This document shows positions 4,755 through 61,016 of a DNA stretch of 64,000 nucleotides, piece after piece. Under the pieces are notes generated by a model that made no database searches, was not told the DNA's origin, and worked only from the letters and a program-made list of their open reading frames with translations. Source of the DNA: a bacterium (lineage in GTDB: Bacteria; Patescibacteriota; Minisyncoccia; JAHIHE01; JAGLIN01); NCBI GenBank assembly GCA_030638825.1, contig DAOWDU010000011.1, positions 5,675-69,674 of the forward strand, in the 5' to 3' direction. Positions within the stretch are counted from its first letter, which is position 1. Every line of letters begins with the position of its first letter. Position numbers and translations under genes: made by a program.

Positions 4755-5609
4755 TTATCGTTTATTCAATCTCTTCAAAATCTCCAAATCTTCCTCAGCT
4801 TTCCCGCCTGGTGTTTCCAAAATAAAATCCAAATTCTTTAATCTTGGCTCATTAATAATCATCTCAAATCCTTCTATTCCAATTTTGCCTTTACCAATAT
4901 TTTCATGTCGATCAATATGCGAATTGAAATCAGATTTTGAATCGTTGCAGTGAATAAGTTTTAATCTTTCCAGTCCAATTATTTTATCAAAATCATCAAA
5001 GGTTTTCTGGACCGCTTTTTTATCGCGTAAATCATAACCTGAAGCGAAAGCGTGAGCGGTGTCAAAGCACACACCTAATTTAATATTTTTGTCATCCTGA
5101 GCTTGTCGAGGGACTTCCTTAATAAAATAGGCGATTTCTTCAAAACTGTCGCCCATAATATTTCCAGAGCCAGCGGTGATTTCCAGCAGTAGGGAACAGG
5201 CATGCCTGTTCCCTACTGCTACTAACCCTTTAATTAATTTCTCCCGCGCTTCTTTTTCGCCTAGTTCTTTCGCGCTTCCTAGGTGAGTAACAACCGCTTT
5301 TGCGCCGAGTAAATCCGCTGTTTCTAGTTCTTTCTTAATTGCTGAAATTGAACCGTAATAAATTCTATTATTCGCCGAAGCGAGATTTATATAATATGGC
5401 GTATGAATGTAATAATTTTCTAAATTATATTTCTGGCAATTTTTTTTAAAATTATTTATAGCGCTCTCTGTAATTTCTTTCGCTTTTCCTCCTTGCGGAG
5501 ATCTGGAAAACATCTGAAAACACTCACAGCCAATCTCGTGAGCTCTTTCGGGAGTTTTTTCAATTTCCCCCGCGATTGAAATGTGCGCGCCAAAGTTCAT
5601 TAGTGACAA
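4755..5609 (-). CDS. nfo: Endonuclease IV (AP endonuclease family 2)
   Basis: Conserved Nfo blocks are present (HAPY-like IHTPYYINLAS, TAGSG, CFDTAHAFASGYD, LIHCNDS). The gene also contains two in-frame repeat insertions, described in the findings. Confidence 0.85.
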   Translation of the reverse strand: MSLMNFGAHISIAGEIEKTPERAHEIGCECFQMFSRSPQGGKAKEITESAINNFKKNCQKYNLENYYIHTPYYINLASANNRIYYGSISAIKKELETADLLGAKAVVTHLGSAKELGEKEAREKLIKGLVAVGNRHACSLLLEITAGSGNIMGDSFEEIAYFIKEVPRQAQDDKNIKLGVCFDTAHAFASGYDLRDKKAVQKTFDDFDKIIGLERLKLIHCNDSKSDFNSHIDRHENIGKGKIGIEGFEMIINEPRLKNLDFILETPGGKAEEDLEILKRLNKR

Positions 5610-10350: not shown

Positions 10351-10514
10351 GAGCGTCATGTAAACATTAAAACATATAAACATTTAAACAAGTTGCGTAA
10401 TAAAGAATTTAATTCAAGAATAAAGTTTAGTGGTTTCTTTTTTATTTTTTACTGAAATCTTTATTCTAAAATTTGTTTATTTGTTTATATGTTTTAATGT
10501 TTATATGAACCCTG

Positions 10515-10599
10515 TGCCGAGGGCGGGACTTGAACCCGCACGCCCAAATATGAGCACAGGCCCTCAACCTGCCGTGTATACCAATTCCACCACCCCGGC
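10515..10599 (-). tRNA. tRNA-Leu (anticodon GAG), long variable arm
   Basis: The reverse complement gccggggtggtggaattggtatacacggcaggttgagggcctgtgctcatatttgggcgtgcgggttcaagtcccgccctcggca folds with the anticodon GAG in a 7-nt loop and has a long extra arm. Confidence 0.8.
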
Positions 10600-11236: not shown

Positions 11237-11361
11237 ATAATTTGGTTACTATTAATCTTTTAATTTAACTATTTTATACTACTTTATAAGAGAGGATTAG
11301 TCAAGGCGAGCGCATATAAATATATAAACATATAAACATTTAAACAAAGTTTATATCATTT

Positions 11362-11562: not shown

Positions 11563-13659
<2,097 letters not shown>

Positions 13660-13700
13660 CTATCATAGCCTCTTTTCTACGGCCGTGAGAAAGAGGCTAT
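13660..13700 (-). terminator. GC-rich hairpin (catagcctcttttctacggccgtgagaaagaggctatg). An identical stem sequence is re-used at 14293-14333.
   Basis: Stem-loop followed by T-rich sequence on the minus strand, immediately after the stop of the 13703-14233 gene. It is a near-identical direct repeat of the hairpin at 14293-14333. Confidence 0.55.
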
Positions 13701-13702
13701 GG

Positions 13703-14233
13703 TTATATTTCTATTTCTTCTATTAAAAATAATTTTATATAAGAGTCAACGGAATACTTTCTTAAGATGAGTTCAGTTTCTTTTTGGACGCTATAGGGAC
13801 AAATCCAGATACTTTGCTGAAGCATTTTATATTCTAAGAGACGAAGTTTTTCTCGCAACAAATCTCGCAGGTGTCTTTTTTCTTCGGGAATGTCAAAAAT
13901 TATCATCTGCCATTTCCCGTCTGGTCTTTTTTGTTTATTTTTTATTTTAAGTTTTGCTTTTAAAACTTTTTCAGCTCCTTTTTTTGTTAGAATAATTCCT
14001 TCATTTTGCTCCAGATTTTTAATCTTAATATAACCATTCTTTTTCAGACGATAAATTAATTGTCTAAATTGTCCCTTTGTCTGTTTTCTTTTATATTGAT
14101 CTTTCAATTCACGGAGAGATGGATAGCAATATTCTTTCATTTTTCTATACGAAAAAATAGTAAAAGTTTTATCTAACTTTTCAGCGTGATTATAAACATC
14201 TAATAAAAATTTATCAGTAATTGGCAGTTTCAT
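13703..14233 (-). CDS. Winged-helix DNA-binding domain fused to a Cas2-like (VapD / PaaX C-terminal fold) domain. Orphan: no cas1 or CRISPR array nearby.
   Basis: The C-terminal block MIIFDIPEEKRHLRDLLREKLRLLEYKMLQQSIWICPY matches the Cas2 pattern (YDI..R.R..L...G.R.Q.SVFEC). The N-terminus has a wHTH pattern. Confidence 0.5.
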   Translation of the reverse strand: MKLPITDKFLLDVYNHAEKLDKTFTIFSYRKMKEYCYPSLRELKDQYKRKQTKGQFRQLIYRLKKNGYIKIKNLEQNEGIILTKKGAEKVLKAKLKIKNKQKRPDGKWQMIIFDIPEEKRHLRDLLREKLRLLEYKMLQQSIWICPYSVQKETELILRKYSVDSYIKLFLIEEIEI

Positions 14234-14292
14234 GGAGCTTATTGAGTTTTAATATTTATCTAATTTTATTATACACTAATTCACGATATAGT

Positions 14293-14333
14293 CATAGCCT
14301 CTTTTCTACGGCCGTAGAAAAGAGGCTATGATT
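14293..14333 (-). terminator. GC-rich hairpin, second copy of the 13660-13700 hairpin, downstream of pilD
   Basis: catagcctcttttctacggccgtagaaaagaggctatg. Confidence 0.5.
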
Positions 14334-14398
14334 ATATTGCTACAGCTACATTTATCGTTCTGTACTATTCTGTATTTAGATGTGGTAAGTATGACAAT

Positions 14399-15244
14399 TT
14401 AATTTATTAAATTCAAATACCACTTAATAATTTTCTCTCCCCAAAACAATCCCACAAAGGTTCCGATTATTAAAAATGGACCGAAGGGAATCATACTGCC
14501 CATTTTTTTCCTGCCAGCTAAAATTAGGAAAATGCCGATTACTGATCCGAGAATAAATGCTAAAAATAAAGCGATTAAAATTACTGGCCAGCCCAAAATC
14601 AGTCCCATTAAAAATGCCAATTTAACATCTCCTCCGCCCATTCCTTTGCCTTTGGTAATGATAATTATTGTGTAGAAAAATCCGCCTGCGAGAATAGCTG
14701 CGATAAACGGATTAAAAATAGTTGTTAAATTTCCAATTTCCAATTTCCAATTTCCAATCAATTCCCAATGATTAAATTTCAAAATTTCAAATAATTTATA
14801 AATGAAGGTTATAATAATCGCAGGATAAATTATTTTGTCTGGAATAATATAGTGTTTTAGGTCATAGACAAAAATAACAATAAAAGTGGAACTGACATAA
14901 AACAGAAATAATAGATAAAGAAATTGAAAATTGAAAATTGAAAATTCACTGAAAATTGAAAATTGAAAATTGAAAATTAGCACAAATAATATCCCTGTCA
15001 TAATTTCTACCAACGGATACTGAATAGAAATTTTATTGCTACAGTATCGGCACTTGCCTTTTAAAAATATAAAGCTAAAAACTGGAATTAAGTCTTGCCA
15101 ATTTAAGATGTGTTTGCAGGATAAGCATCTCGATCTGTCATTTACTATTTTTTCTCCGTTTTCTAATCTATAAATGACCACATTCAAAAAACTGCCGATA
15201 ATCAGGCCGAAGATGAAAATAATTATATTGTATAAAATAAGCAT
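14399..15244 (-). CDS. pilD: Prepilin peptidase (A24 family), carrying two internal heptamer tandem-repeat arrays
   Basis: Zn-binding cysteines CLSC...CRYC, peptidase motif GGGDVKL, and multi-TM topology. Confidence 0.9.
   Translation of the reverse strand: MLILYNIIIFIFGLIIGSFLNVVIYRLENGEKIVNDRSRCLSCKHILNWQDLIPVFSFIFLKGKCRYCSNKISIQYPLVEIMTGILFVLIFNFQFSIFSEFSIFNFQFLYLLFLFYVSSTFIVIFVYDLKHYIIPDKIIYPAIIITFIYKLFEILKFNHWELIGNWKLEIGNLTTIFNPFIAAILAGGFFYTIIIITKGKGMGGGDVKLAFLMGLILGWPVILIALFLAFILGSVIGIFLILAGRKKMGSMIPFGPFLIIGTFVGLFWGEKIIKWYLNLIN
14728..14769. repeat. Heptamer tandem repeat (ttccaat) x4-5 inside pilD
   Basis: Four perfect copies at 14731-14758 plus a degenerate copy. The unit length is not a multiple of 3. 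Confidence 0.85.
14920..14978. repeat. Heptamer tandem repeat (gaaaatt) x7-8 inside pilD, interrupted by cact
   Basis: Three copies at 14926-14946, then cact, then four copies at 14951-14978. Confidence 0.85.
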
Positions 15245-15278: not shown

Positions 15279-15689
15279 TTATGGAAAAGTGCATCCGTTT
15301 TGAGTGCAATCGGCAGTGGCAGTGGTTGTGCCATCTGACGCTTTTGCTTCGTTAGTTGCGGTTATAGTATAATTGAATGTCCCGGCTCCACTTGTGCCAC
15401 AATTTTGATCTGGAGCTGCTGATAGACTTGTAAAAGTGATGTCATGATCATAAGTGGTTCCAGTAAAATCTTCTACAACGATATCTCGATCATCGCAAAT
15501 GCTTACTATTCCTGGCACTGTTCTGCTTGCTTCTGCTTTAAACGCCGCATCTTTAGCTTTTTGCCTTGTGTTGTTTAAAGTTGTCATCACGATACTTGCT
15601 AAAATACCAATAATTGCGATAACAACCAAAAGTTCAATTAGGGTAAAGCCCTTTGAGTTTCTCGGGGTGAGCTCTTGTTTAAATTCCAT
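15279..15689 (-). CDS. Type IV pilin / pseudopilin (N-terminal methylation motif)
   Basis: [22 protein letters not shown] prepilin leader plus hydrophobic helix. C-terminal Cys pair CTQNGC. Confidence 0.85.
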
Positions 15690-15818: not shown

Positions 15819-16211
15819 CTAATTAAAAGTGCATCCATTTTGAGTGCAGGAAGCAACAAGAGTAACTGCAGGTGTAGCTGAATTCAATGCGCCATTATCC
15901 GCAGTTACAGTATAACTAAACGTTCCAACTCCACTTGTGCCACAATCTTGAGTTATTGTGGCAAAAACAGTAGCATGAATATAAGTGGAACCAGTAAAAT
16001 CAGTTACAACGATAGGATCATCATCACAAATACTAACTAATCCTGGTACTGTTCCAGCTGCTTCTGCTTTAAATGCTACATTTTTAGCTTTTTGTCTCGC
16101 GCTGTTTAAACTTACCATTACAACTGAAGCTAAAATACCGATAATTGCGATAACAACCAATAACTCAATCAAAGTAAAACCTTTCTTATTTATTTTTAAC
16201 ATTCGTTTCAC
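15819..16211 (-). CDS. Type IV pilin paralog
   Basis: [24 protein letters not shown]-terminus. C-terminal CTQNGCTF, as in the neighbouring pilin. Confidence 0.85.
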
Positions 16212-16225
16212 CTCCTTTCCTAATT

Positions 16226-16510
16226 TTATTTAGTTACAATTTTTAAAAGTTCTTTAAAATGCGAAAGAGCGTTTGGCAATTGCTTGTAAATTCTTTCAGC
16301 ATCATCTTCATTATAAGTATGAACAGTTTCATTTCTCATATCCACAAACTCAATCCAGTCCTCAGTGTAATTTATAATGCTCTGCCGATAAGCTTCACGG
16401 AAACATTCTTTGGGAGAAGCGCAAACAACTCCTTTTTCTTCTTCAAGAAGAGCTTTCAACATTTTCCATGAAATATCCAAAGTAAATTCAAACCGCTGAA
16501 TCTCTGACAA
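16226..16510 (-). CDS. HEPN-domain protein of the nucleotidyltransferase substrate-binding (HI0074) family. The N-terminal part appears displaced into another frame (16511-16595).
   Basis: [19 protein letters not shown] and the R-x4-H HEPN motif RNETVH. An ATG at 16593-16595 overlaps the MNT stop (ATGA coupling) but reads a different frame. Confidence 0.65.
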
Positions 16511-16591: not shown

Positions 16592-16897
16592 TCATAGCGC
16601 TTCAATCTTTTGTTTAGCCAGATTATAAAAATCAGGAGATACTTTTTTAAAATCAACAACATCAATTTTGTAAAGAATTGGCAAATTTTCAAAATCCTCT
16701 TTAATTTTTGCCATCACTTGCCAAGAAATTTCTTTCTCTCCCTCAATTCCAAGATCAATATCAGATCGCTCATTTCCCTTTCCCATAACCCTTGAGCCGA
16801 AGAAGAAAATTTTGTTCTGGTCAAGATTTAAATAGTTGCCAATAATATCTTTGGTTTCCTTTTTAAATTTATCCAAAGAATAAAATTCAAGTCTCAT
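16592..16897 (-). CDS. Minimal nucleotidyltransferase (MNT), partner of the downstream HEPN protein
   Basis: Pol-beta-type NTase motif GSRVMGKGNERSDIDLGIEG. Confidence 0.8.
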   Translation of the reverse strand: MRLEFYSLDKFKKETKDIIGNYLNLDQNKIFFFGSRVMGKGNERSDIDLGIEGEKEISWQVMAKIKEDFENLPILYKIDVVDFKKVSPDFYNLAKQKIEAL

Positions 16898-16950: not shown

Positions 16951-17041
16951 AGCATCAATACGAGAACATTAAAACATTCAAACAAAATTTTGAAATCGCA
17001 GTATGTTTAAATGTTAATATGTTTATATGTTAACATGACGC

Positions 17042-18118
17042 TTATCTTCTCATCAACATTTTCAAATCGCTCACATTAGTTGAATAAGTCTTGGCGTCTT
17101 CTAGCGTTATCTTATTTCTTTTCACGAGATCTGCGAGTGAGTTATTTAAAGAGACCATTCCTTCATCAGCGCTAGTGTTAATGACAAGATTAAGCTGGTG
17201 AGTTTTGTTTTCCCTAATCAAATTCTTGACCGCGGAGTTAGAGGTCATTATTTCCACGGCTGGAATTCTGCCTCCGTCTATATTTGGAATAAGCCGTTGC
17301 GATAAAATTCCGAGAAGATTTCCAGCTAATTGAGATCTAATCTGATTTTGCTGGCTGGCGGGAAAACTGTCAATAATTCTATCTATAGTTTGAGCAGTGC
17401 TGTTAGTGTGCAGAGTAGCAAATACAAGGTGCCCAGTTTCTGCCGCGGTAATGGCAGTGCTCATTGTTTCCCAATCTCTCATTTCTCCAACCAAGATAAT
17501 ATCAGCATCTTCTCTGAAAATAGAACGAAGAGCGTTGCTAAACGATTTTGTGTCAATGCCAACTTCTCTCTGATTGATGATACATCTATTTTGAGTGTAG
17601 ACATGTTCAATCGGATCCTCAATTGTCACTATATGCGCGTTTCGCTGACTGTTTATTCTGTCAATGAGCGCCGCTAAAGTGGTTGATTTTCCATGTCCAG
17701 AAGGACCAACGACGAGCACAAAACCTTGTGATGGTTTTGTGAAATCATAAACCATTTCTGGAATGCCAAGTTGTTCAAGGTTTCTTATTTTGGAGGGAAT
17801 AAGCCGAAAAGAAGCGCTCATAAAACCTCTTTGGAAAAAGACATTTATTCTAAATCTCGTTTTTTTTTCAAACTCATACGAAATATCAAGTTCCTTGTTT
17901 TCTATAAATTTTTCTTTTTGCTCGCTTGTCAAAAATGCGCTAACAAGCTCCTCTACTTTTCTTGGAGTTAGGAGCTCTTTATTAGTCAGCGGGACTAATC
18001 TTCCGTCAATTCTAAGCGTTGGATATCGTCCAACTGATAAATGCAAATCGGACGCATTTTCTTGCGTCGTGCTAATTAGCAAATCATCTAACTCTTGTTT
18101 AGCGTTGATACTAGTCAT
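17042..18118 (-). CDS. pilT: Type IV pilus retraction ATPase PilT
   Basis: Walker A VVGPSGHGKSTTLAA, a PIEHVY-like block and the His box. 358 aa. Confidence 0.9.
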   Translation of the reverse strand: MTSINAKQELDDLLISTTQENASDLHLSVGRYPTLRIDGRLVPLTNKELLTPRKVEELVSAFLTSEQKEKFIENKELDISYEFEKKTRFRINVFFQRGFMSASFRLIPSKIRNLEQLGIPEMVYDFTKPSQGFVLVVGPSGHGKSTTLAALIDRINSQRNAHIVTIEDPIEHVYTQNRCIINQREVGIDTKSFSNALRSIFREDADIILVGEMRDWETMSTAITAAETGHLVFATLHTNSTAQTIDRIIDSFPASQQNQIRSQLAGNLLGILSQRLIPNIDGGRIPAVEIMTSNSAVKNLIRENKTHQLNLVINTSADEGMVSLNNSLADLVKRNKITLEDAKTYSTNVSDLKMLMRR

Positions 18119-18136
18119 ATTGATTCATATTAATGT

Positions 18137-18523
18137 TTACATGCTTTTCTTTAATACTTCTCTGATTTTTTCAATAACTTCTGACGGTGTAAAATGAGCC
18201 TTGATTATATAACTGTCAGCCCCTAAATCAAATCCTTTTTCTACATTTTCTTTCTGCCCCAAATTTGTTAAAAGCACGACAGGGATTCCTTTTAGCTCTA
18301 TGTTTTTTTTAATTATTTTCAAAACATCAAAGCCGTCCATTTTTGGCATAACAACATCCAAAAGAATTATATCTGGTTTTTGTTTTTCTAGCATCTTAAT
18401 GCCTATTATTCCATCCTTTGCAGTCGCAACTTCAAAGTTTTCTGATTCTAGTTTAATCTTATACATGTCAGATATGTAAGAATCATCTTCTATTATTAAA
18501 ACCGATGTTTTGTCTTTGATCAT
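18137..18523 (-). CDS. Single-domain response regulator (CheY-like receiver)
   Basis: Receiver residues DD...D (IIEDDSY, LLDVVMP), T/S and K. Confidence 0.85.
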   Translation of the reverse strand: MIKDKTSVLIIEDDSYISDMYKIKLESENFEVATAKDGIIGIKMLEKQKPDIILLDVVMPKMDGFDVLKIIKKNIELKGIPVVLLTNLGQKENVEKGFDLGADSYIIKAHFTPSEVIEKIREVLKKSM

Positions 18524-18524
18524 A

Positions 18525-18599
18525 TTGTTAAATTGTTAAATTGTTAAATTGTTAAATTGTTATGCGTGGCATAGCAATATTTTTATGCCATGCATAACA
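18525..18599. repeat. Octamer tandem repeat (attgttaa) x about 5, then a 15-bp inverted repeat (gttatgcgtggcata / tatgccatgcataac). It lies directly upstream of the response-regulator ATG.
   Basis: The tandem array spans 18525-18563, and the inverted repeat spans 18559-18573 / 18585-18599. The 21-mer atgcataacaatttaacaat recurs at 45370-45395. Confidence 0.7.
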
Positions 18600-18623
18600 A
18601 TTTAACAATGTAGCAATTTAATT

Positions 18624-20384
18624 TTATTCTTCCGTAACTCTCAAGACTTCCTCTATGGTTGTTAGTCCAGATAGAACTTTCATTATTCCATCTTGCTTCA
18701 TTGTCACCATTCCCTGTCTTTCCGCTTCTTTTGATATTTCAGCGTCTGAAATATTAGAAGACATTATGGATTCCAATTCGGGAGTCATTAAAAGAACTTC
18801 ATAAACTCCTATTCTTCCAGAAAATCCAGACTGTTTACATTCTTTGCATCCTTCTCCGTGAAAGAGTTTGAGACCTTTTTTTATATTAAAATCACTTTTC
18901 TGATCGTCGGGAACATTTTCAAGCTCTTTTCTGATAATTTTTTCCATAGAAAGTGAAGCTGGCATTTCTTTTTTGCAGTGGGAGCATATTTTTTTAACTA
19001 AGCGTTGCGCTATTGCTATATTTAAGGAGGACGATATTAAAAACGGTTCAACTCCCATATCAATCAAACGCGGGATAACGCCAATCGCGTTATTAGTGTG
19101 CAGCGTTGATAAAACCAAGTGTCCTGTTAGGGCGGCATGGGTCGCTAATTCGGCTGTTTCTTTGTCTCTTATTTCTCCAACCATTATAATATCTGGATCT
19201 TGCCGCAATATTGATCTTAATCCCGAAGAGAAGGTGTATCCTATTTCTGATCGTATTTGACTTTGATTTATTCCAACCATAAAATATTCTACAGGATCCT
19301 CCAAGGTCACAACATTTACTCCTTCCTTATTTAGTATTTTCATCATCGCGTAGAGAGTTGTTGATTTTCCGGAGCCTGTTGGTCCCGTCACAAGAACAAT
19401 TCCGAATGGCTTGCTTATATTGTCGTTGATTATTCGCAATCCATTTTTCCAAATGCCTAAGTTTTCCAGGGTGCTAATATTTGAAGATGTGTCTAAGATT
19501 CTCATTACCACTTTTTCTCCGTTGACGGTTGGAAAAGTAGAAACACGCAAATCAACACTTTTGCCTAAATTGCCCTCCTTAGAAAGAGTGAAACGAAATC
19601 TTCCATCTTGCGGTTTTCTGGTTTCATCTATTTTTAAATTGGCAAGTATTTTTATTCGAGAAGTGATCGCGGGAGTAATTTTTTTGGGGAGAACTAAGCT
19701 GTTGTGTAAAGTTCCGTCTAATCTATATCTAACTCTCAGTTCATTTTCATTTGGCTCAATGTGGATGTCGCTTGCTCTTCCTTCTACAGCGTGAGTAAGG
19801 ACAATATTTACAATCTTGCTTACGGGAGCTTCTCCAGTAATTCTTTCTATTTTTCTGCTTCCTGTTTCCTTTTTTAGATTTTGCTCCTTGCTAATAATTT
19901 GCTGGTCAACATTTTTTAGAACATTTTCTAATTCATCGTCTACTTTTTTATACTGTTTTACAGCGTCATAAAAATCGCTCCTAGACACCAAATATATTTT
20001 TGTGTTAGTCTTGTGCCTTATGGAAATAAATTTTAAGGCATCTAACGCTTCTGTATTATTCGGATCAAGCATAGCGACATTAACTGTTCCGTCATTTTCT
20101 CCAAATGGTATAAATTTATAAAACAACGCTGCTTTTTCTGGAATCTTTTTTAAAATTTCACTATCAATAATTTCATCTTTCAGTTTGATATAAGGGACCC
20201 CCAAAAAAGCTGCTTTAACTTTCGTCAGCTCTCTTTCGTCAGCCGTTTTTTTATCAATCAAAATGTCAAAAATATCCAAATTATCCTTCTTTGATTTTTC
20301 AAGCGCGTCATCAATTGTATGCTTATCAACTACATTGCTGGAAAGCAAGTAGTCGTAAGCTCTCTCAAGGTTTTTACTATTCAT
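18624..20384 (-). CDS. pilB: Type IV pilus assembly ATPase PilB (GspE family)
   Basis: N-terminal GSPII_E_N domain, Walker A LVTGPTGSGKSTTLYA, and a C-terminal Zn motif CSHC...CKEC. Confidence 0.9.
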   Translation of the reverse strand: MNSKNLERAYDYLLSSNVVDKHTIDDALEKSKKDNLDIFDILIDKKTADERELTKVKAAFLGVPYIKLKDEIIDSEILKKIPEKAALFYKFIPFGENDGTVNVAMLDPNNTEALDALKFISIRHKTNTKIYLVSRSDFYDAVKQYKKVDDELENVLKNVDQQIISKEQNLKKETGSRKIERITGEAPVSKIVNIVLTHAVEGRASDIHIEPNENELRVRYRLDGTLHNSLVLPKKITPAITSRIKILANLKIDETRKPQDGRFRFTLSKEGNLGKSVDLRVSTFPTVNGEKVVMRILDTSSNISTLENLGIWKNGLRIINDNISKPFGIVLVTGPTGSGKSTTLYAMMKILNKEGVNVVTLEDPVEYFMVGINQSQIRSEIGYTFSSGLRSILRQDPDIIMVGEIRDKETAELATHAALTGHLVLSTLHTNNAIGVIPRLIDMGVEPFLISSSLNIAIAQRLVKKICSHCKKEMPASLSMEKIIRKELENVPDDQKSDFNIKKGLKLFHGEGCKECKQSGFSGRIGVYEVLLMTPELESIMSSNISDAEISKEAERQGMVTMKQDGIMKVLSGLTTIEEVLRVTEE

Positions 20385-21532: not shown

Positions 21533-22078
21533 TTATTCTTCGTTTCTCACCTTAACTTTCATTGAAGCGTTCTTTTCTATTTTCGGAAGTTTAACCGTAA
21601 GAATGCCGTTTTTGATTGTCGCTTCAACTCCTTCTGTTTTAATATCGCTTGGCAAAATAATTGAACGCGAAAAATTCCCCCAAAAACATTCTTGATAATA
21701 ATAATCGTCAGCTACGACATTGTCAGGATTTTCTCTCTTTCCTTTGATAGTCACCATATCGCTCGTAACGGAAATATCTAAGTTTTCAGGTCGGACGCCG
21801 CCAATAATTGATTTTACAACAATGAGTTCTTTTGTTTTGTAAACATCTACTGTCAACTGGCCTTCTTCGTTAATATCATCTTCTTTTCCTGAAAGCCATT
21901 CCTTGTCAATTTTTTTGTTTTCAGAATTATTCTCGTCAGTGTCTCCGTTGTCCGCTTCATTCTCGTTTGTTGTTTCTGTTTCTTTTTCTTCATCAGAATC
22001 AGAACTAACAATTCTGTTTAAAAATGATTTTTTTTGTTTTGTCATATTATTCATATTAACATTTAAATATATAAACAT
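21533..22078 (-). CDS. Hsp20/alpha-crystallin small heat-shock protein with an acidic N-terminal extension
   Basis: Alpha-crystallin domain: LTVDVYKTKELIVVKSIIGGVRPENLDISV ... GILTVKLPK. Confidence 0.75.
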   Translation of the reverse strand: MFIYLNVNMNNMTKQKKSFLNRIVSSDSDEEKETETTNENEADNGDTDENNSENKKIDKEWLSGKEDDINEEGQLTVDVYKTKELIVVKSIIGGVRPENLDISVTSDMVTIKGKRENPDNVVADDYYYQECFWGNFSRSIILPSDIKTEGVEATIKNGILTVKLPKIEKNASMKVKVRNEE

Positions 22079-22164
22079 TTAAACACAAATTTTAAAATAT
22101 AAAAAGCGACTGCTTGTTTATATGTTTACATGTTTACACGATTACATTATACCATTTTTAAAAA

Positions 22165-25100
22165 TTACAACAAGGACTTTATTTTTTCTTTCAGTTTTTT
22201 TATTTTTTTTTCGCTTTCCATAAATTTTTCTCTTTCTTTTTCAACAATTTCCCGCGGAGCATTGCCGACAAAATCATCATTGCCAAGTTTTGTTTTTATC
22301 TGGAAAATATATTTTTCTATATTTTCTATTTTTTTTTCTAAATTCTTTTTTTCTTTTTCTTTGTCAATTATTCCCTCTAAATAAATTTCAATATCGCCAA
22401 CAACTAAATAAACCGCGTCTTTGATTTTATCGTCCTTTTCTTTTATTTCTAATTTATCAATTCCAGTTCTGAGATTTTTGATTAAATGCGCTTGTGATTT
22501 GATAAATTCTTTTTTATTTCCAGCGTAAATTACAGCTTCAATTTTTTTACCTGGCTCAACCTTATATTCCGCGCGCGCGTTGCGAATGGCTTTAATAATA
22601 TTTTGAATTATTTCAAAATCGCGGGCTGTTGTGATTGTAGGGAACGGGCATGCCTGTTCCCTACAATCACGGTCAGCCCACTTTTCCACCATCAGTAAAT
22701 TTTCACTGTCTAAATTCTTCCAAATTTCTTCTGTCACAAACGGAATAAAAGGGTGAAATAAAATTAAAACTTGTTTTAAAATATAATTTAAAATCTCATT
22801 TTTATTTTTTTCAATTTTAGAAATTTCAATATACCAGTCAGCGAAATCGTTCCAGGTAAATTCTTTTATTTTTTCGCCAGCTTGCGAAAATTTATAATTA
22901 TTCAAATCATCTGTGACTTCTTTAGTTAAATTGTTTAGATTATTTAAGATCCATTTATCTGCTAATGTGGCATCAGAAGCTGGGCTTCCAATTGGAAGCC
23001 CAGCTTCTTTAGTATTATCAATATTCATAATAATATACCGTGAAACATTCCACAACTTATTCACAAAATTCCGATACCCTTCAACTTTTTCTTCATACAT
23101 CTTAATGTCATTTCCTGGACTGGATCCGATAATCATACTCAATCTCAAAGCGTCCGTTCCGTATTTCTCGATCATCTCGATCGGATCAATCCCATTTCCA
23201 AGAGACTTGCTCATTTTCTTTCCCTGCTTATCTCGTACCATTCCATGCAAATAAACATTTTCAAACGGGACTTCGCCAAGCGTATAAGTCGTCATCAAAA
23301 TCATTCTTGCCACCCAAAAAAACAAAATATCATAACCCGTTTCCATCACGCTTGTTGGATGAAACTTTTTCAAATCTGGACTATTCGCAACCCAATCTTC
23401 AAAAGTTTTATATTTCTCGTGATCCTGATTTAATAAAGTTGAAAATGTCCAAAGACCTGAGGAGAACCAGGTGTCTAGAGTGTCGGTGTCCTGTGTCCAG
23501 TTTTTTCCTTCTGGTGGATTAGTCCCAATATATATTTCTTGATTTTTATATTTCTTACCTTTCGGTATCATAGTATATACTATGGAACTATTATCAAATT
23601 TATTATTTAATTCATATTTCCATCCCGCTTGCCACTCTTTTGTTTTTCTCCAATCTTCATTAATCGCTTGCTCCCAAGTTCTATTTTTTAAAATTACATC
23701 TAGCGCTAACTGTGGAGCTTTGTGCGCAACAATAGCAATTTTTTTACCTTGATATTTATCTATTAAATCATTAAGAAAATCCCTGATTCTTTTTTCAACA
23801 TCTTTATAGCTCTCGCCCTTTGGAAATGGTTTGTCTATTACATTTTTTTCTATCACCAAAATTTCAGACGCACCAGCTTGTGTTAAATCTCCATAATCAC
23901 ACTCACGCAATCTTTCATCCTGAATGATTTTTACACCTCTATCACTAAACGTTAGGCTTGCAGAATCAACTGCTCGTTTCAAATCTGAACAAAATACAAT
24001 ATCAAATTTCTCATTTTCAATTGTTTTCTTTAAATCTTTTGACTGCTGAATTCCTAATTTTGATAATTTTACATCATAATGACCAGACGCTTTATTCTTC
24101 TCATTATCAATCGTCGTCCCATGAACAAAATAAGTAATATCAATTCCTGATTCCTGATTCCTGATTCCTGATTCATTTTTATACCAAACCGGAATCCGAT
24201 GCCCAAACCATAACTGACGGGAAATACACCAATCATGCAAATTTTCCATCCAATTATGATATGTTTTTTCAAATCTTTCAGGAATGATTTCAATTTTCTT
24301 GTCATTTTTTTCATCAGCTTTATTCACCACTTCCAAAGCAATTTCCTTCAAGGACTTATTTTGAAAATATTTATTTCCTCCAATTGTAATTTTCTTGTCA
24401 ACGGCGACAAACCATTGTTTTGATGGCAAAGGTTCAATCGGGGTATCACAGCGGTAGCAAATGCTTAAACTTTGATCTACTTCTTCAACTTTTTCAATTA
24501 AATTATTTTTCTCAAAATACTGGACTATTTTTTCTCGCGCTTCTAAAACTGTTAGTCCTTCATAATCTTTTCCTGCGTTCTCATTCATCTTCCCGTCTTC
24601 GCCAATAATTTTTATTTTCTCCAAATCATTTTTCTCTGCCATTTCCCAGTCAGTCATACTGTGCGCGGGAGTTACTCCTAATGCCCCAGTTCCAAACTTT
24701 ATTTCAACTTCTCTATCTGAAATAATTTTAATTTTATGTTTGCCATTTCCTAAATTTATTTCAAAAACTTTGCCAATATACTTTTTATATCTCTCATCTT
24801 TTGGATTAACAGCAACCGCTGTATCGCCTAACTTTGTTTCTGGTCTTGTTGTCGCGATTGTGATTGGAAAGTCTTTGTCATATTTAAAATAATACAGTTT
24901 CCCTTTTTGCTCTTCGTGTTCAACTTCATCATCCGCTAAAGTTGATTCGCATCTTGGGCACCAGTTGACAATTCTGTCTCCTCTATATATTAATTTATCA
25001 TTGAACATTTTTGTAAATACTTCCCTCACTGCGCGTGATAATCCATCATCAAGTGTGTATCTTTCCCTTGACCAATCGCAAGAAGAACCCATTTTTCTGG

Positions 25101-25512
25101 TTTGATTTTTAATTGTACTTTTTGAATTTTCTACATATTCATTTACTCGCTCCAGAAATTTCTCTCTGCCTAAATCATATTTCGTCTTCCCCTCTTTTGC
25201 GATTATCTTTTCTACTTTCGTCTGTGTCGCGATTGAAGCGTGGTCTGTTCCAGGAAGCCATAAAGTATTTTTTCCTTTCATTCTATTATACCTAATCATC
25301 AAATCCTGATAAGCAAGCATTGAAGCATGTCCTAAATGCAAAACTCCCGTCGCATTCGGCGGCGGCATTGAGATTGAAAAGTTTTGTAGGGAACAGGTAT
25401 GCCTGTTCCCTACAAAACTATTCGGATTAAAAAAACCAGACTTTTCCCAAGTCTTATAAATTTTATCTTCCACCTCTTGAGGATCATATGCTTTTGGAAT
25501 TTCTTTTTTCAT
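22165..25512 (-). CDS. valS: Valyl-tRNA synthetase with inserted domains
   Basis: HIGH (PNATGVLHLGHA), KMSKS and the anticodon-binding/coiled-coil C-terminus. 1115 aa, longer than typical ValRS because of insertions. Confidence 0.95.
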   Translation of the reverse strand: MKKEIPKAYDPQEVEDKIYKTWEKSGFFNPNSFVGNRHTCSLQNFSISMPPPNATGVLHLGHASMLAYQDLMIRYNRMKGKNTLWLPGTDHASIATQTKVEKIIAKEGKTKYDLGREKFLERVNEYVENSKSTIKNQTRKMGSSCDWSRERYTLDDGLSRAVREVFTKMFNDKLIYRGDRIVNWCPRCESTLADDEVEHEEQKGKLYYFKYDKDFPITIATTRPETKLGDTAVAVNPKDERYKKYIGKVFEINLGNGKHKIKIISDREVEIKFGTGALGVTPAHSMTDWEMAEKNDLEKIKIIGEDGKMNENAGKDYEGLTVLEAREKIVQYFEKNNLIEKVEEVDQSLSICYRCDTPIEPLPSKQWFVAVDKKITIGGNKYFQNKSLKEIALEVVNKADEKNDKKIEIIPERFEKTYHNWMENLHDWCISRQLWFGHRIPVWYKNESGIRNQESGIDITYFVHGTTIDNEKNKASGHYDVKLSKLGIQQSKDLKKTIENEKFDIVFCSDLKRAVDSASLTFSDRGVKIIQDERLRECDYGDLTQAGASEILVIEKNVIDKPFPKGESYKDVEKRIRDFLNDLIDKYQGKKIAIVAHKAPQLALDVILKNRTWEQAINEDWRKTKEWQAGWKYELNNKFDNSSIVYTMIPKGKKYKNQEIYIGTNPPEGKNWTQDTDTLDTWFSSGLWTFSTLLNQDHEKYKTFEDWVANSPDLKKFHPTSVMETGYDILFFWVARMILMTTYTLGEVPFENVYLHGMVRDKQGKKMSKSLGNGIDPIEMIEKYGTDALRLSMIIGSSPGNDIKMYEEKVEGYRNFVNKLWNVSRYIIMNIDNTKEAGLPIGSPASDATLADKWILNNLNNLTKEVTDDLNNYKFSQAGEKIKEFTWNDFADWYIEISKIEKNKNEILNYILKQVLILFHPFIPFVTEEIWKNLDSENLLMVEKWADRDCREQACPFPTITTARDFEIIQNIIKAIRNARAEYKVEPGKKIEAVIYAGNKKEFIKSQAHLIKNLRTGIDKLEIKEKDDKIKDAVYLVVGDIEIYLEGIIDKEKEKKNLEKKIENIEKYIFQIKTKLGNDDFVGNAPREIVEKEREKFMESEKKIKKLKEKIKSLL
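22631..22670. repeat. Family-A palindrome (gtgattGTAGGGAACgGGCATGCCTGTTCCCTACaatcac), in frame in valS
   Basis: 40-bp palindrome with one central mismatch. It encodes ...ACPFPTITT... in valS. Confidence 0.8.
22975..23008. repeat. Family-B palindrome (aGAAGCTGGGCTTCCAATTGGAAGCCCAGCTTCt), in frame in valS
   Basis: Perfect 34-bp palindrome. It encodes EAGLPIGSPAS. Confidence 0.8.
24143..24175. repeat. Heptamer tandem repeat (attcctg) x4 inside valS
   Basis: Encodes ESGIRNQESGI at the start of the ValRS insertion. Confidence 0.8.
25380..25419. repeat. Family-A palindrome (agttttGTAGGGAACAGGtATGCCTGTTCCCTACaaaact), in frame near the valS N-terminus
   Basis: It encodes the VGNRHTCSLQ insertion between the conserved N-terminal segment and the HIGH region. 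Confidence 0.8.
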
Positions 25513-47195: not shown

Positions 47196-47339
47196 AATTC
47201 ATTTCTTACGCCGCTTAAAACAAATAAATAATAAGCCGAATTTTGTTTTCTGATATAAAATCAAAATGATAATCATCTATCTAGCCATACTATTGCTAGT
47301 ATGATCAAGCGAGCTACTTTTTTCCCAACTAACTTACAA

Positions 47340-47693
47340 CTTACAACTTACAATTTTAATATTGTTATTTGTTATGAGTTATAGGTTATAAGTTAGTCAG
47401 GATTTGCTCTTGCACCAGGCAGGGTTTACCATCATTTGCTGTCACCAGCAAGGAAAGAGCGTAGATTTAAATTTATAAAAATTCAAATCATCGCCCAACT
47501 TTTCACCTTTTATCATGTATAACATGATTAGTATAGTCTCTGTGGCACTTTCCCTATCCTAAAAAAATTAGAACGGTTGCCGTTAGCAACTGCCTGCTTC
47601 CAGGTTATTTTAAAGTAATCTGGGGTGTTCGGACTTTCCTCTCCTATTCTTTAAAAGAACAAAAGCGATTATCTAATTTACCATTTTAAGCTC
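47340..47693 (-). ncRNA. rnpB: RNase P RNA (bacterial type), ends approximate
   Basis: The non-coding region is GC-richer than its surroundings. The minus strand carries GAGGAAAGUCCGAAC (P4 5' strand), GGGAAAGUGCCACAGAGA, AAGGUGAAAAG, GGUAAACCCUGCCUGG and GCAAGAGCAAAU in canonical order. An extended -10 TGTATAAT lies at 47700-47707 (minus strand). Confidence 0.6.
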
Positions 47694-49827: not shown

Positions 49828-50688
49828 ATGTTTTCTAAAACCGAAATTAAAAAATTACTTGAAGAAAAAGATTTGAAAGTTCTGAAAAGGTTAGGACAGA
49901 ATTTTTTGATTGATGAAAAAGTTTTAAATGAAATAATTAGAGCGTCGGAACTTAATAAAGATGATTTTATTTTGGAAATTGGTCCAGGTTTGGGAACGCT
50001 TACCGATGAACTTGTTAAAAAATGTGGAACAGTTGTGGCGATAGAGAAAGATAAAAAAATGGCAGAGTTGATTTTTAAAGAAGCTGAGCTTCCTATAGGA
50101 AGCTCAGCTTCTCGCGCTTTTTTAAAAATCATCAACGATGATATTTTAAAAATAAATTTAAACAAGCTTATTGAAGAATATTCTAAAAACAAAAAATATA
50201 AATTGATTTCTAATATTCCATATTACATCACTTCGCCTGTGATAAAATTATTTTTAGAAAATAGCATCCAGCCGGAGCTGATTGTTTTGCTTGTTCAAAA
50301 AGAAGTAGCGGAAAGGATCTGCGCGAAGCCGGGAAAATTAAGTATTTTAGCTTTGAGCGTCCAAATATACGGCGAGCCGGAGATTGTTAGCTATGTTGAT
50401 AAAGCCGCGTTTTATCCCGAGCCAAAAGTTGATTCGGCGATTTTAAAAATCAAAAACATTAAAAAAGAATTCTCTGAAGAGTATTACAAAAAACTTTTCA
50501 AAATTATAAAAATCGGGTTTTCGTCTAAAAGAAAAAAGCTGGCAAATAATTTATCAGCTGGATTGTATCTTACCAAAAAAGAAAGTGAAGATATTTTGCA
50601 ACAATCAAACATAAATCTAAACACTCGCGCGCAGGAATTGAGTTTGGAGGAGTGGGATAAATTAGTAAAATTGACGCTGTTGAAATAA
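49828..50688 (+). CDS. rsmA: 16S rRNA (adenine1518/1519-N6)-dimethyltransferase
   Basis: LGQNFLIDEKVLNEII and LEIGPGLGTLT SAM-binding motifs. Confidence 0.9.
   Translation: MFSKTEIKKLLEEKDLKVLKRLGQNFLIDEKVLNEIIRASELNKDDFILEIGPGLGTLTDELVKKCGTVVAIEKDKKMAELIFKEAELPIGSSASRAFLKIINDDILKINLNKLIEEYSKNKKYKLISNIPYYITSPVIKLFLENSIQPELIVLLVQKEVAERICAKPGKLSILALSVQIYGEPEIVSYVDKAAFYPEPKVDSAILKIKNIKKEFSEEYYKKLFKIIKIGFSSKRKKLANNLSAGLYLTKKESEDILQQSNINLNTRAQELSLEEWDKLVKLTLLK
50079..50112. repeat. Family-B palindrome (aGAAGCTGAGCTTCCTATAGGAAGCTCAGCTTCt), in frame in rsmA
   Basis: Perfect 34-bp palindrome. It encodes EAELPIGSSAS. It differs from the valS copy by compensated changes (G to A paired with C to T, AATT versus TATA centre). 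Confidence 0.8.
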
Positions 50689-53386: not shown

Positions 53387-53432
53387 CAAGTTATGTTAGA
53401 ATGTTAGCATGTTAAAATGTTAAAATGAAATT

Positions 53433-54083
53433 ATGAATATTGTTTGGTACGGGCAAAGCTGTTTCAAGATTCAAAGCAAAGATATAATTTTAATCACCGA
53501 TCCCTTTGATAAAAAAATTGGGCTAAGACCGCCTTTTGGATCAGCCGATATTGTGACCATTAGCCATAATCATTATGATCACAATAACTTTCAAGTCATC
53601 AAGAACGATCCCTTTATTGTTGATAGTGTTGGAGAATATGAAATAAAAAAAGTGACAATTAAGGGAATAGACTCTTGCCATGATAATCAGGGAGGGAAAG
53701 AGAAGGGACAAAATACGATTTATAAAATAGAAATGGAAGGAATAAAAATCTGCCATTTGGGAGATTTTGGGCAAAGTACCCTTGTCAATGGACAGCTGGA
53801 AAAAATAGGCCAGATTGATATTTTGTTTATTCCCATCGGCGGAGTTTTCACGATTGATTGGAAATCAGCAAGCGCCATCATCAGCCAAATTGAACCGAGA
53901 ATAATAATTCCGATGCACTATAAAATTCCAGGAGTGAAAGGAGATTTATTGAAGTTAGATACCGTTGATCAATTCTGCAAAGAACGCGGTGTGTCATCCA
54001 AAGACGCTGTTAATAAGTTTAGTATTAAAAAGAAAGATTTGCCTCAAGAAGGATCGGAAACGGTGATTATGAAAGTCGCATAA
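53433..54083 (+). CDS. Metal-dependent hydrolase of the MBL fold (UPF0173 family)
   Basis: ISHNHYDHNN (HxHxDH) and downstream His/Asp ligands. 216 aa. Confidence 0.8.
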   Translation: MNIVWYGQSCFKIQSKDIILITDPFDKKIGLRPPFGSADIVTISHNHYDHNNFQVIKNDPFIVDSVGEYEIKKVTIKGIDSCHDNQGGKEKGQNTIYKIEMEGIKICHLGDFGQSTLVNGQLEKIGQIDILFIPIGGVFTIDWKSASAIISQIEPRIIIPMHYKIPGVKGDLLKLDTVDQFCKERGVSSKDAVNKFSIKKKDLPQEGSETVIMKVA

Positions 54084-57571: not shown

Positions 57572-57595
57572 ATGTTTATATGTTAAAATGTTTAT

Positions 57596-58156
57596 ATGAC
57601 AATAGATATTAATAAAATTGGCAGTGGGGGGTTTATGAATCCAGATAAAATTGTGGAAGAACTCAATATTAAAAACGGGATGTTCGTTGCTGATTTTGGC
57701 TGTGGCGCTGGATATTTTACAATCCCAATCGCTAAAATAATAAAAAACAGCGGCAAAATTTACGCAATAGATGTTTTAAATGAATCGTTAGAAAATGTTT
57801 TAAGCAAAGCAAAATTATATGATTTGCTTAATATTAAAACTGTTCGGGCTAATATAGAAATAATTGGCGGATCAAAAATAGAAAGCGGTTCCGTTGATTT
57901 GGTAATTCTCGCCAATATACTTTTTCAATGCAATGATCATAGTTCGGTTTTGAACGAAGCTAAGAGAATCTTGAAGAATAATGGCAGTGTTGTTGTTGTA
58001 GATTGGATTCCCAAAAAAGTTCCTTTAGGACCAAAATATGAGCATTGCCTCAGCGAGGAAACTATAAAAAAACTTGCTATAAAGAATGGACTGAAAGTTG
58101 TCAGAAAAATAGACGCTGGAAATCAGCATTATGGGATGGTGTTGAAAAACATATAA
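57596..58156 (+). CDS. Class I SAM-dependent methyltransferase
   Basis: Motif I VADFGCGAGYFTIPIA. Confidence 0.8.
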   Translation: MTIDINKIGSGGFMNPDKIVEELNIKNGMFVADFGCGAGYFTIPIAKIIKNSGKIYAIDVLNESLENVLSKAKLYDLLNIKTVRANIEIIGGSKIESGSVDLVILANILFQCNDHSSVLNEAKRILKNNGSVVVVDWIPKKVPLGPKYEHCLSEETIKKLAIKNGLKVVRKIDAGNQHYGMVLKNI

Positions 58157-58216
58157 ACATATAAACATATAAACATATAAACATATAAACATATAAACAT
58201 ATAAACATATAAACAT
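58151..58216. repeat. Octamer tandem repeat (atataaac) x8.25, overlapping the methyltransferase stop codon
   Basis: Perfect copies from 58151. The unit is the core of the recurrent intergenic ACATATAAACA motif. Confidence 0.9.
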
Positions 58217-58263
58217 GGGGGCTTCAAAGGTTTGTTTAAATGTTTACATGCTTATATGTTTAA

Positions 58264-59780: not shown

Positions 59781-59857
59781 TGGTGGGCCATCCTGGACTC
59801 GAACCAGGGACTTCGACCTTATAAGGATCGCGCTCTAACCAACTGAGCTAATGGCCC
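59781..59857 (-). tRNA. tRNA-Ile with anticodon UAU (reads AUA), CCA encoded
   Basis: The reverse complement gggccattagctcagttggttagagcgcgatccttataaggtcgaagtccctggttcgagtccaggatggcccacca has anticodon stem cgatc/ggtcg, loop ctTATaa, A37 and the GGTTCGAGTCC T-arm. Confidence 0.8.
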
Positions 59858-60011
59858 AAAGTCATATAAACATTTAAGCATATAAGCATTTAAATATGTT
59901 GAGACTTCAGCTTTTTGTTTATATGTTTAGGTGTTTACATGTTTACATGATGTTATTCTAATAAAAAAATGTTAATTCGTCAATTCCAATATTCAAAATA
60001 TTCAATTATTT

Positions 60012-61016
60012 TTACTTTTTACTGTGAAACTTCTTGTGAATATTTTTCAAATGCTTGTCTGTGATGTGCGTGTAAATTTGAGTTGTCGTGATACTGGAAT
60101 GGCCGAGCATTGACTGGACGCTTCTAATGTCAGCGCCGTTCATTAGTAAATCTGTCGCAAAACTGTGCCGCAAAGTATGGGGCGTCACTTTTTTTACGAT
60201 GCCCGCTTTGACGGCATATTTTTCTACTATTCTTTGAATAGTTCTTACTGTCAGTCGTAAAGATTGATTTGCTTTTGCTTTATTTTTCTTACTGTTTTTT
60301 TTGCTTTTATTTTCATTATTGCAATAGCCACCGCCTTTTTTTCTAAAATTTATAAATAACGCAGGGTCAATATCTTTCCTTTTTTTAAGATAATCTATTA
60401 TGGCATCTTTTGCTGAGTCGGAAATAAAAACAAGACGGATTTTTCCTCCCTTTCCCCTTATAGAAAACTCGCCGCTTTTGAGATTTATGTTTTCCCTGTT
60501 TAAATTAGCAAGTTCCGAGACGCGAAGTCCAGTGGAAAATAGCAATTCTAAAATCGCTTTATCGCGCAGGCGATGGAAATATTGAAGGCGACATTCCGGA
60601 ATGTCGCCTTCAATATTTCCATCGCCTGTTTTCACAGATTCTAATAATCTTTTTATCTCATCCGCTTCTAAAAATTCTACTTCTCGCTCTTGCGTTTTTC
60701 CAAGCTCCACTTTTTCACTTGCCAATGTTTCAATATCTTGTTTTGCTAAATATTTCAAAAAACCGCGCAAGGCGATTATATAATAATCCTGTGTTGCTTT
60801 TTTTAAATTTTTTTCTTTACGATCTTTATATCTATTGAGATATAACCTGAATTTCTTTACCAATTCACCTGTAATATCCTCTGGATTTCTGATCATTGCC
60901 CAATCTAAAAACCGATTTAAATAATGATCGTAGTTTCTAATTGTCAGCTGTGATCTATTTTTCTCAATCTCCAAATATTCAAGAAATTCAATTTTTAATT
61001 CTTTTATTTTTTCCAT
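60012..61016 (-). CDS. Tyrosine recombinase (XerC/XerD / phage-integrase family) with a Lys/Asn-rich insertion
   Basis: The C-terminal catalytic block HTLRHSFATDLLMNGADIRSVQSMLGHSSITTTQIYTH (R...HxxR...Y). XerD-like N-terminal core-binding domain. Confidence 0.8.
   Translation of the reverse strand: MEKIKELKIEFLEYLEIEKNRSQLTIRNYDHYLNRFLDWAMIRNPEDITGELVKKFRLYLNRYKDRKEKNLKKATQDYYIIALRGFLKYLAKQDIETLASEKVELGKTQEREVEFLEADEIKRLLESVKTGDGNIEGDIPECRLQYFHRLRDKAILELLFSTGLRVSELANLNRENINLKSGEFSIRGKGGKIRLVFISDSAKDAIIDYLKKRKDIDPALFINFRKKGGGYCNNENKSKKNSKKNKAKANQSLRLTVRTIQRIVEKYAVKAGIVKKVTPHTLRHSFATDLLMNGADIRSVQSMLGHSSITTTQIYTHITDKHLKNIHKKFHSKK

Follow-up and report, generated by a model that had tools for sequence, protein, structure and literature searches.

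A 64-kb stretch of a patescibacterial contig (hereafter the window, to which coordinates refer unless a locus is named) carries on its minus strand a small gene, here called X, that is bracketed by two near-identical palindromes. Gene X (13703..14233, ATG start) encodes 176 amino acids (aa), and its open reading frame (ORF) exactly matches the peptide that an initial annotation of this DNA had quoted for a winged-helix, Cas2-like protein. Its upstream neighbour is pilD (14399-15244, minus strand), which encodes a prepilin peptidase of family A24 and is 68% identical to a Peptidase_A24 gene; the co-directional downstream gene is ligA (11563..13635, minus strand), which encodes an NAD-dependent DNA ligase and is 99% identical to an annotated NAD-ligase. 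Both neighbours had been named correctly before, but the pilD/ligA site is not the sole context of X. Read along the minus strand, the order is pilD, upstream palindrome, promoter-like site, X, downstream palindrome, a run of six T residues (T6) and ligA, with 68 nt between the end of pilD and the upstream palindrome and 28 nt between the downstream palindrome and ligA.

The upstream palindrome, our proposed operator 1, has a perfect 38-bp core, CATAGCCTCTTTTCTACGGCCGTAGAAAAGAGGCTATG, at 14293-14330 and extends to 52 bp (14286-14337) with one mismatch. The downstream palindrome at 13664-13701, our proposed operator 2, is an imperfect copy that lies 1 nt past the stop codon of X. The initial annotation had put the pair at 13660-13700 and 14293-14333, as hairpins in direct orientation with a single g/a difference. 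The two near-identical copies are real, but their limits are those given here, they differ at 3 ungapped positions that amount to a 1-nt shift in one arm, and "direct orientation" is meaningless because the palindrome is perfect. No further copy was found in the 64 kb at up to 3 mismatches, and 100 shuffles gave an expectation of 0 for the two matches. An apparent 68-nt inverted repeat (I2) that extends into the ends of the gene was set aside, as it consists of the palindrome plus AT-rich chance matches. RNA folding gave -35.5 kcal/mol (z = -8.6) and -22.5 kcal/mol (z = -4.8) for the two copies, and Rfam had no family match at either. The T6 run, read on the coding strand (13654..13659, minus strand), begins 4 nt past the downstream palindrome and gives it the look of a terminator; it is not conserved in the family.

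A consensus scan of the minus strand placed a promoter-like site for X at 14268..14295, consisting of a -35 hexamer ATGACT (14295-14290), a 16-nt spacer and an extended -10 element, TGTATAAT, with its hexamer at 14273-14268. The -35 hexamer and the upstream palindrome overlap at the palindrome's gene-proximal end. Cassettes from other genomic contexts keep the motif TAGTGTATAAT at the same place (alignment A4) and have the extended -10 element at a fixed distance past the upstream palindrome, and we take the site to be the putative promoter of X. A second, weaker match (13662..13691, minus strand; -35 TTCTCA, 18-nt spacer, -10 TATGAT) agrees at 9/12 positions with what is a low-specificity consensus. 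This match, which falls within the downstream palindrome and at its end, precedes the ligA start codon by 27 nt and could possibly be a ligA promoter under the control of X.

Fold and family of protein X

The Pfam model PaaX_M (PF20803) matches residues 102-171 of X with 79.7 bits against a gathering cut-off of 24 (E=1.7e-22), and the Cas2 model (PF09827) gives a sub-threshold match of 16.4 bits against 23.8 (E=0.01). PADLOC Cas2 models gave E=0.003-0.06, and scans with defence libraries returned only sub-threshold Cas2, CARF and WH matches. For the N-terminal domain, Pfam yielded a single weak winged helix-turn-helix (wHTH) match (E=0.026). The NCBIfam PaaX model TIGR02277 reached 39.5 bits against an equivalog cut-off of 264.55, aligned over profile positions 37-149 of 279. 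AlphaFold modelling, which included a second model built from an 80-sequence alignment (predicted local distance difference test score, pLDDT, 79.9), gave a three-helix winged helix with a beta-wing (residues 5-82), a linker helix and a beta-alpha-beta-beta-alpha-beta domain. The top Foldseek match was E. coli PaaX (8a39), with E=6.8e-6 over 182 columns spanning both domains; it was followed by many Cas2 chains, VapD, the PaaX-family structures 3l09 (179 columns) and 3kfw, and wHTH proteins including TubR and the MarR type. Foldseek probabilities were ~1.0 to many Cas2 chains, with template-modelling scores of up to 0.66 when normalised to Cas2. Given these Pfam, NCBIfam, AlphaFold and Foldseek results, X is a mini-PaaX: a winged helix and a Cas2-like PaaX middle domain without PaaX_C, the protein ending at residue 176 directly after the Cas2-like domain. 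This is the architecture that the initial annotation had proposed, and the structure prediction that it had called for confirms the Cas2-like fold.

Like PaaX (8a39, 3l09; TIGR02277; E. coli, Pseudomonas), X starts with a winged helix, after which comes the Cas2-like PF20803 domain. Unlike PaaX, which has about 305-316 aa, it has 176 aa and no PaaX_C ligand-binding domain, it retains a Cas2-type aspartate that E. coli PaaX does without, and it occurs as several paralogues per genome, each with a distinct site. It also lies apart from paa genes: no paa family was found among the listed commonest families of ~150 neighbours or among the genes called in loci L001-L013. The C-terminal half of X shares the ferredoxin-like beta-alpha-beta-beta-alpha-beta fold of Cas2 and VapD. 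X differs from these proteins in scoring below the Pfam Cas2 cut-off, in its fusion to a winged helix, and in having no cas1, array or toxin-antitoxin partner. The window contains no CRISPR-like array, and no Cas1 was found among the window ORFs tested, which cover the window in part; this agrees with what had been noted before. Nor was Cas1 seen among the neighbour families of 77+74 loci, and no partner antitoxin ORF is conserved beside X. X is thus no CRISPR Cas2, and the fused winged helix together with the PaaX_M match places it in the PaaX lineage.

Conservation was assessed in 85 distinct members, among which D105, D114, G86, L138 and Q139 are invariant and R123, S141, W143, C145 and P146 are at least 98% conserved. 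D114 aligns with the catalytic aspartate at the end of beta-1 in Cas2, where E. coli PaaX has Ser-Glu. We take the X motif FDIP to correspond to the YDI of Cas2, and LQxSxW to its QxSVF.

The family is large. A word-indexed search found 308 relatives; those listed are almost all 174-178 aa long, every named one among them comes from Patescibacteria, and several share one assembly. An exhaustive profile search returned 5,177 clusters (50% identity) at E<=1e-3, with 2,285 of them passing E<=1e-10; most of the best 150 are 170-230 aa long. A scan with one genome per species identified 127 relatives in metagenome-assembled genomes, with 3-5 paralogues per genome; within the 64-kb window, tblastn found no paralogue of X. 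One homologue bears the database record name "CRISPR-associated endonuclease Cas2". The 135 pattern matches in viral contigs included no relatives, and collections of phage and plasmid records gave no match.

Paired palindromes and their two-fold symmetry

We compared 79 non-redundant related loci, down to ~30% protein identity, with a control in which flanks from different loci were paired and whose 99th percentile served as the threshold. Matching upstream and downstream repeats exceeded this threshold in 64 of the 79 loci. The palindromes occupy equivalent positions at homologous loci, are 30-56 bp long and differ in sequence by lineage and by paralogue; even the paralogues of one genome carry distinct ones. 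The upstream palindrome mostly lies 10-90 nt before the start codon; the downstream palindrome of most members of the close subfamily begins between 8 nt before and 6 nt after the end of the stop codon. Among the closest relatives, the two-palindrome bracket is found both at pilD/ligA sites and at sites between a NUDIX gene and a thymidylate-synthase-fusion gene. The unit of one gene and two palindromes thus recurs throughout the very small genomes of Patescibacteria (the candidate phyla radiation, CPR), each copy with its own palindrome, and we found no earlier description of the family or of the arrangement in the literature on PaaX-like proteins, Cas2-like proteins and patescibacterial palindromes.

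The symmetry of these sequences is that of DNA. Mirror positions paired in 95.8% of cases in 57 centred 40-mers, compared with 52% in shuffles and ~40% in slid controls, and double-sided changes numbered 497 versus 146; the 57 palindromes had been picked for palindromy, which inflates the absolute values, but the contrast is still very large. The centre is the most conserved part of the palindrome: C18 and G23 are invariant, the central four bases (columns 19-22) are self-complementary in ~95% of cases, and the centres read CGGCCG, CGATCG, CTATAG or CATATG. Since pairing through the would-be loop is impossible in a hairpin, it indicates two-fold symmetry of duplex DNA. Mismatches on the coding strand comprised 19 G:T and 24 A:C, and the fact that G:T is no commoner than A:C argues against selection on RNA from either strand. 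In the set of 40-mers, G:U made up ~2% of cells. U-tracts followed the downstream palindrome in 6 of 37 cases, against a background of 11%. The lack of both a G:U bias and an enrichment of U-tracts therefore points to a constraint on duplex DNA rather than to RNA terminators.

Palindrome and protein vary together. The central 6-8 bp track the protein clade and its recognition-helix motif, a relationship confounded by phylogeny: QLIYxLK occurs with CGGCCG or CGATCG, FYYLK with GCTATAGC, and other motifs with CATATG. The arm sequences track the X tree and not the genomic site. Canonical PaaX offers a precedent for a site of this size. It is a phenylacetyl-CoA-responsive repressor, and in E. coli a plain autorepressor, that occludes its own promoter from an inverted-repeat operator; the E. 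coli PaaX box, TGATTC-N27-GAATCA, spans 39 bp (PMC9493321), and the core of the window palindrome, CATAGC-N26-GCTATG, spans 38 bp. The proposed site of X differs from the PaaX box in being a perfect palindrome over its whole 38-56 bp instead of two short half-sites, and in bracketing the gene with two copies.

Cassette boundaries, contexts and solo palindromes

Nucleotide homology between cassettes from different contexts starts and stops at the outer edges of the palindromes. The suggestion that the repeats bound a small cassette is therefore upheld and extends to the family. The immediate neighbours belong to 121 Pfam families downstream and 85 upstream, and are diverse housekeeping genes; the commonest are FemAB, ligA, malic enzyme, thyA, Mur ligases and DegT, with tRNA synthetases also found beside copies, and the listed commonest families include no integrase or transposase. 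X is not the orphan oddity beside pilus genes that it had first seemed: the cassette occupies more than 100 other contexts, and the order pilD-X-ligA itself is kept in at least four other genomes (L011, L020, L023 and L028). The ligA genes of these four are 69-79% identical to that of the window (79% in L028), and retention of the order over this distance marks the window copy as old and stable. The X tree is nevertheless discordant with the conserved pilD-ligA context, the window protein being 83-85% identical to copies at NUDIX-thyA sites and 71% identical to its positional counterpart in L028.

An empty site was found in L121 (8883-10830), where the NUDIX gene and the thymidylate-synthase-fusion gene have a short overlap of a few bases and no cassette is present. 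Relatives L001, L004 and L007, whose thyA is 86-89% identical to that of L121, have ~0.9-1 kb between the two genes, made up of an X cassette and spacers. The empty site holds neither a residual solo palindrome nor a target duplication, and the indel exceeds the palindrome-to-palindrome unit in length. The downstream gene in this second context encodes a 484-aa fusion of MtrA-like, thymidylate-synthase and PterinBD (DUF4346) parts (L001 5797-7251, L004 1835-3289, L007 5611-7065) and sits in a cluster with dCMP-deaminase, NUDIX, tmk, dut and holB genes.

Palindromes also occur without the gene. A metagenome scan for CTTTTnnnACGGCCGTnnnAAAAG matched 68 contigs, and 56 matches were true extended palindromes, 14 of which adjoin an X homologue and 27 of which are solo, meaning that the family hidden Markov model (HMM) detected no X within 500 nt and that the contig extended at least 800 nt on both sides. 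An earlier count of 33 solos came from tblastn alone; the calls were re-tested with the family HMM and with Pfam on neighbouring ORFs of ~175 aa. These ORFs proved to be PAP2, CYTH, LigD_N, RNase T, S16 and similar proteins, and as they are unrelated to X, the solo calls are real. Solo palindromes mostly lie between co-directional housekeeping genes, where they sometimes fill the entire gap; several are 14-60 nt past a stop codon, some of them with a T-run, and some match X-flanking palindromes of related genomes with 1-3 mismatches in 32. X-centred loci contained ~5 solo copies in 580 kb, and the 64-kb window contained none. Judged from X-centred loci and the window, the copy number looks like a handful per genome and not like the hundreds of repetitive extragenic palindromic (REP) sequences. 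A pair of palindromes 814 bp apart in L115 was considered as an X remnant and rejected: no X pseudogene was found, and the pair belongs to a ~200-bp repeat unit. This unit, with ACGGCCGT-class palindromes, recurs at L115 4900-6727 between small genes, one of them RelE/ParE-like, and resembles an array of cassettes; its units have no X gene between them.

Proposed regulation, possible mobility and the surroundings of X

The most economical reading, to which we give roughly an even chance, is that X is a mini-PaaX protein that binds DNA and regulates its own gene through two cognate dyad operators, in a cassette that has been duplicated, moved and exchanged. X would act as a minimal PaaX-type DNA binder, with a winged helix and a Cas2-like dimerisation domain but no ligand-sensing C-terminal domain, and its dimer would bind both ~38-bp dyad palindromes as duplex DNA. 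Binding at the upstream palindrome, over the -35 hexamer, would repress the X promoter. The downstream palindrome at the stop codon would be a second operator; it would form a loop with the first one, or else block or gate transcription into ligA, the candidate local target of X. Every paralogue or lineage would have its own cognate palindrome, and solo palindromes between housekeeping genes may serve as further operator or roadblock sites. The unit of palindrome, promoter, gene and palindrome would then be a self-contained cassette that was duplicated, moved and exchanged during patescibacterial evolution.

The immunity region of lambdoid phages offers an analogy. There, cI lies between OL and OR, which are joined by looping, and the region is an exchangeable module with lineage-specific operators. 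The X cassette resembles it in placing a predicted repressor gene between two proposed operators of its own, and differs in being chromosomal, among housekeeping genes and outside any phage context, and in having one long palindrome per side instead of tripartite 17-bp operators.

Several observations weigh against autoregulation through dyad operators. Differences between upstream and downstream copies take the form of symmetric double changes, at 33 mirror pairs compared with 4.5 expected, and 27 of the 33 leave both copies self-complementary; symmetry within a palindrome is therefore held more strongly than identity between the copies. Neither these double changes nor the full complementarity of ~20 mirror positions is predicted by a plain dimer-operator model. 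An additional mechanism is needed, which could be cruciform formation or the correction of quasi-palindromes by template switching, a known mutational mechanism. Moreover, close paralogues with different palindrome arms show hardly any variation in the recognition helix, the palindromes of one lineage (L007/L016) have decayed although its gene is still intact, and the most conserved residues (D105, D114, R123, Q139 and S141) sit in the Cas2-like domain, including the invariant counterpart of the Cas2 catalytic aspartate that is dispensed with in E. coli PaaX.

A rather doubtful alternative makes the cassette a selfish mobile element, at present or until recently, and X a site-specific nuclease or recombination protein that would recognise its flanking palindromes and cut or pair them. 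The winged helix would target the site, the Cas2-fold dimer would be catalytic at the dyad centre, and each solo palindrome would be a footprint, a landing site or a mobilised copy. Systems comparable to this are REP-associated tyrosine transposases (RAYTs) with their REPs, or an insertion sequence whose terminal repeats overlap the transposase promoter. Mobility is favoured by homology that is bounded by the outer palindrome edges across contexts, by the several paralogues per genome among more than 100 neighbour families, by the empty NUDIX-thyA site in a closely related genome and by the discordant X tree. It also gains from the 27 solo palindromes, from the centre being the best-conserved part of the palindrome, from the invariance of D114, D105 and Q139 (R123 and S141 being nearly invariant), and from an asymmetry common to both copies that is flipped between them in 4/4 informative loci, as in terminal inverted repeats. 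The window genome, too, has other perfect palindromes, in frame inside housekeeping genes. Against mobility stand the long retention of pilD-X-ligA, the apparently low copy number, with no solos in the window and few in related loci, and an empty site that has no palindrome or target duplication and an indel exceeding the unit. In addition, we know of no Cas2-fold protein that is a transposase, viral contigs and phage and plasmid records contained no relatives, and canonical PaaX of the same fold is a plain repressor (PMC9493321).

The comparison with RAYTs also cuts both ways. The X cassette shares with them a single gene flanked by mutually inverted cognate palindromes, a palindrome class for each paralogue, and extra intergenic palindrome copies. 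RAYTs, however, are HUH/Y1 transposases, a domain missing from X, for which only the PaaX_M match and weak Cas2 and wHTH matches were found. REPs form imperfect hairpins and number tens to hundreds, whereas the palindromes of X are perfect through the centre and seem to be present in a handful of copies per genome. Given the invariant Cas2 catalytic aspartate, X may yet have a nuclease or mobile-element role. A more specific form of this idea, which we consider unlikely, is that wHTH-Cas2-fold proteins are the active part of a new palindrome-associated element in Patescibacteria, working as sequence- and structure-specific nucleases or recombination proteins at the dyad centre (CGGCCG, CGATCG, CTATAG or CATATG) of their cognate perfect palindromes, moving or copying the cassette and perhaps seeding the solo copies. 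If true, this would make the family a functional analogue of RAYT/REP systems and the first member of a novel class of repeat-associated elements based on the Cas2 fold, and X a free-living relative of the Cas2 and PaaX lineage that has a link to repeat handling and bears on the kinship of Cas2, PaaX and repeat handling.

We consider it quite improbable that the palindromes are Rho-independent terminators or mRNA-stabilising hairpins that act at the RNA level, were copied along and are unrelated to the protein. Both window copies fold into strong RNA hairpins, each stands just downstream of a co-directional gene (pilD or X), T6 follows the downstream one, and several solos lie shortly after stop codons, some with a T-run. 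Reuse of a terminator, as the initial annotation had suggested, nonetheless fails across the family: U-tracts are at background, wobble pairs show no excess on either strand, the would-be loop is self-complementary and Rfam has no match. Nor is there a reason for the terminator of an upstream gene to match that of X in 64/79 loci or to co-vary with the clade. The last alternative, an orphan CRISPR Cas2 or VapD-like toxin (RNase) from a toxin-antitoxin or defence module with degenerate CRISPR-like repeats, can draw on the confirmed Cas2 fold, the weak profile matches (Pfam E=0.01, PADLOC E=0.003), the record name of one homologue and the conserved aspartate, but it is very improbable and already largely refuted by the Cas2 score below the curated cut-off, the lack of an array in the window and of cas1 among tested window ORFs or ~150 neighbour genes, the lack of a conserved adjoining antitoxin ORF, a "spacer" that is the 592-bp gene itself, and the fused winged helix and PaaX_M match of the PaaX lineage.

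The pilus region upstream of X has features of its own. Two tandem pilin-like genes with a class III signal (15279-15689 and 15819-16211) lie directly upstream of pilD and are ~77% identical as DNA over 211 nt (repeat D3). Between them and pilT is a gene pair (16226-16510 and 16592-16897) that we judged, by position only, to be a HepT-like and nucleotidyltransferase (MNT) toxin-antitoxin pair. L011 has PF01934- and PF01909-annotated genes at the matching place beside pilD, and tblastn of the putative HepT/MNT proteins of the window against L011 gave no match at E<=1e-5. An 86-bp inverted repeat (18536-18621) with five units of ATTGTTAA separates a response-regulator gene (18137-18523) from pilB (18624-20384) and may have a regulatory role in the pilus cluster.

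Elsewhere in the window, conserved housekeeping genes contain perfect palindromes of 32-72 bp, through which the reading frame continues. Such palindromes were found in the ORFs for ValRS (22165..25512, minus strand; palindromes at 25376-25423, 22975-23008 and 22631-22670), AP_endonuc_2 (4755..5609, minus strand; 5185-5220), RsmA/RrnaAD (49828..50688, plus strand; 50079-50112) and an XerC/D-type integrase (60012..61016, minus strand; 60567-60628), with further palindromes in ligA (13275-13310) and at 575-646. The one in ligA corresponds to a 9-aa insertion that is missing from four orthologues. Two sequence families recur, GTAGGGAACRGGCATGCCYGTTCCCTAC three times and AGAAGCTGRGCTTCCwwwwGGAAGCYCAGCTTCT twice; they differ from the X-flanking palindromes, and the in-gene palindromes resemble the palindromic elements of Rickettsia, which are inserted in coding sequences. 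Intergenic arrays with an 8-bp period, CATATAAA (TGTTTATA on the other strand), reach 8.8 copies and occur in both orientations, at 10357-10399, 10471-10515, 11313-11355, 17001-17045, 22052-22156, 53391-53443, 57562-57606, 58147-58274 and 59863-59957. Frequent locations are beside tRNA genes (Phe, Leu, Ile) and upstream of genes, and the arrays may be promoter-upstream or regulatory repeats. The class A RNase P RNA (47216-47684) matches the full 367-position model across 469 nt and therefore contains ~100 nt of inserted sequence. A tRNA-Ile at 59781-59857 has the anticodon UAU, less common than the lysidine-modified CAU tRNA-Ile2 that most bacteria use.

Patescibacteria make up a large share of bacterial diversity and cannot grow alone, and to our knowledge almost nothing is known of their gene regulation. 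The X family is large and sits beside core genes such as ligA, thyA, FemAB and Mur genes and tRNA synthetase genes. As every member would have two copies of its own recognition sequence beside it, the cognate site of a paralogue could be read straight from a metagenome, and the regulons or the mobility of these proteins would be directly testable with synthetic DNA and recombinant protein, with no need for culturing.

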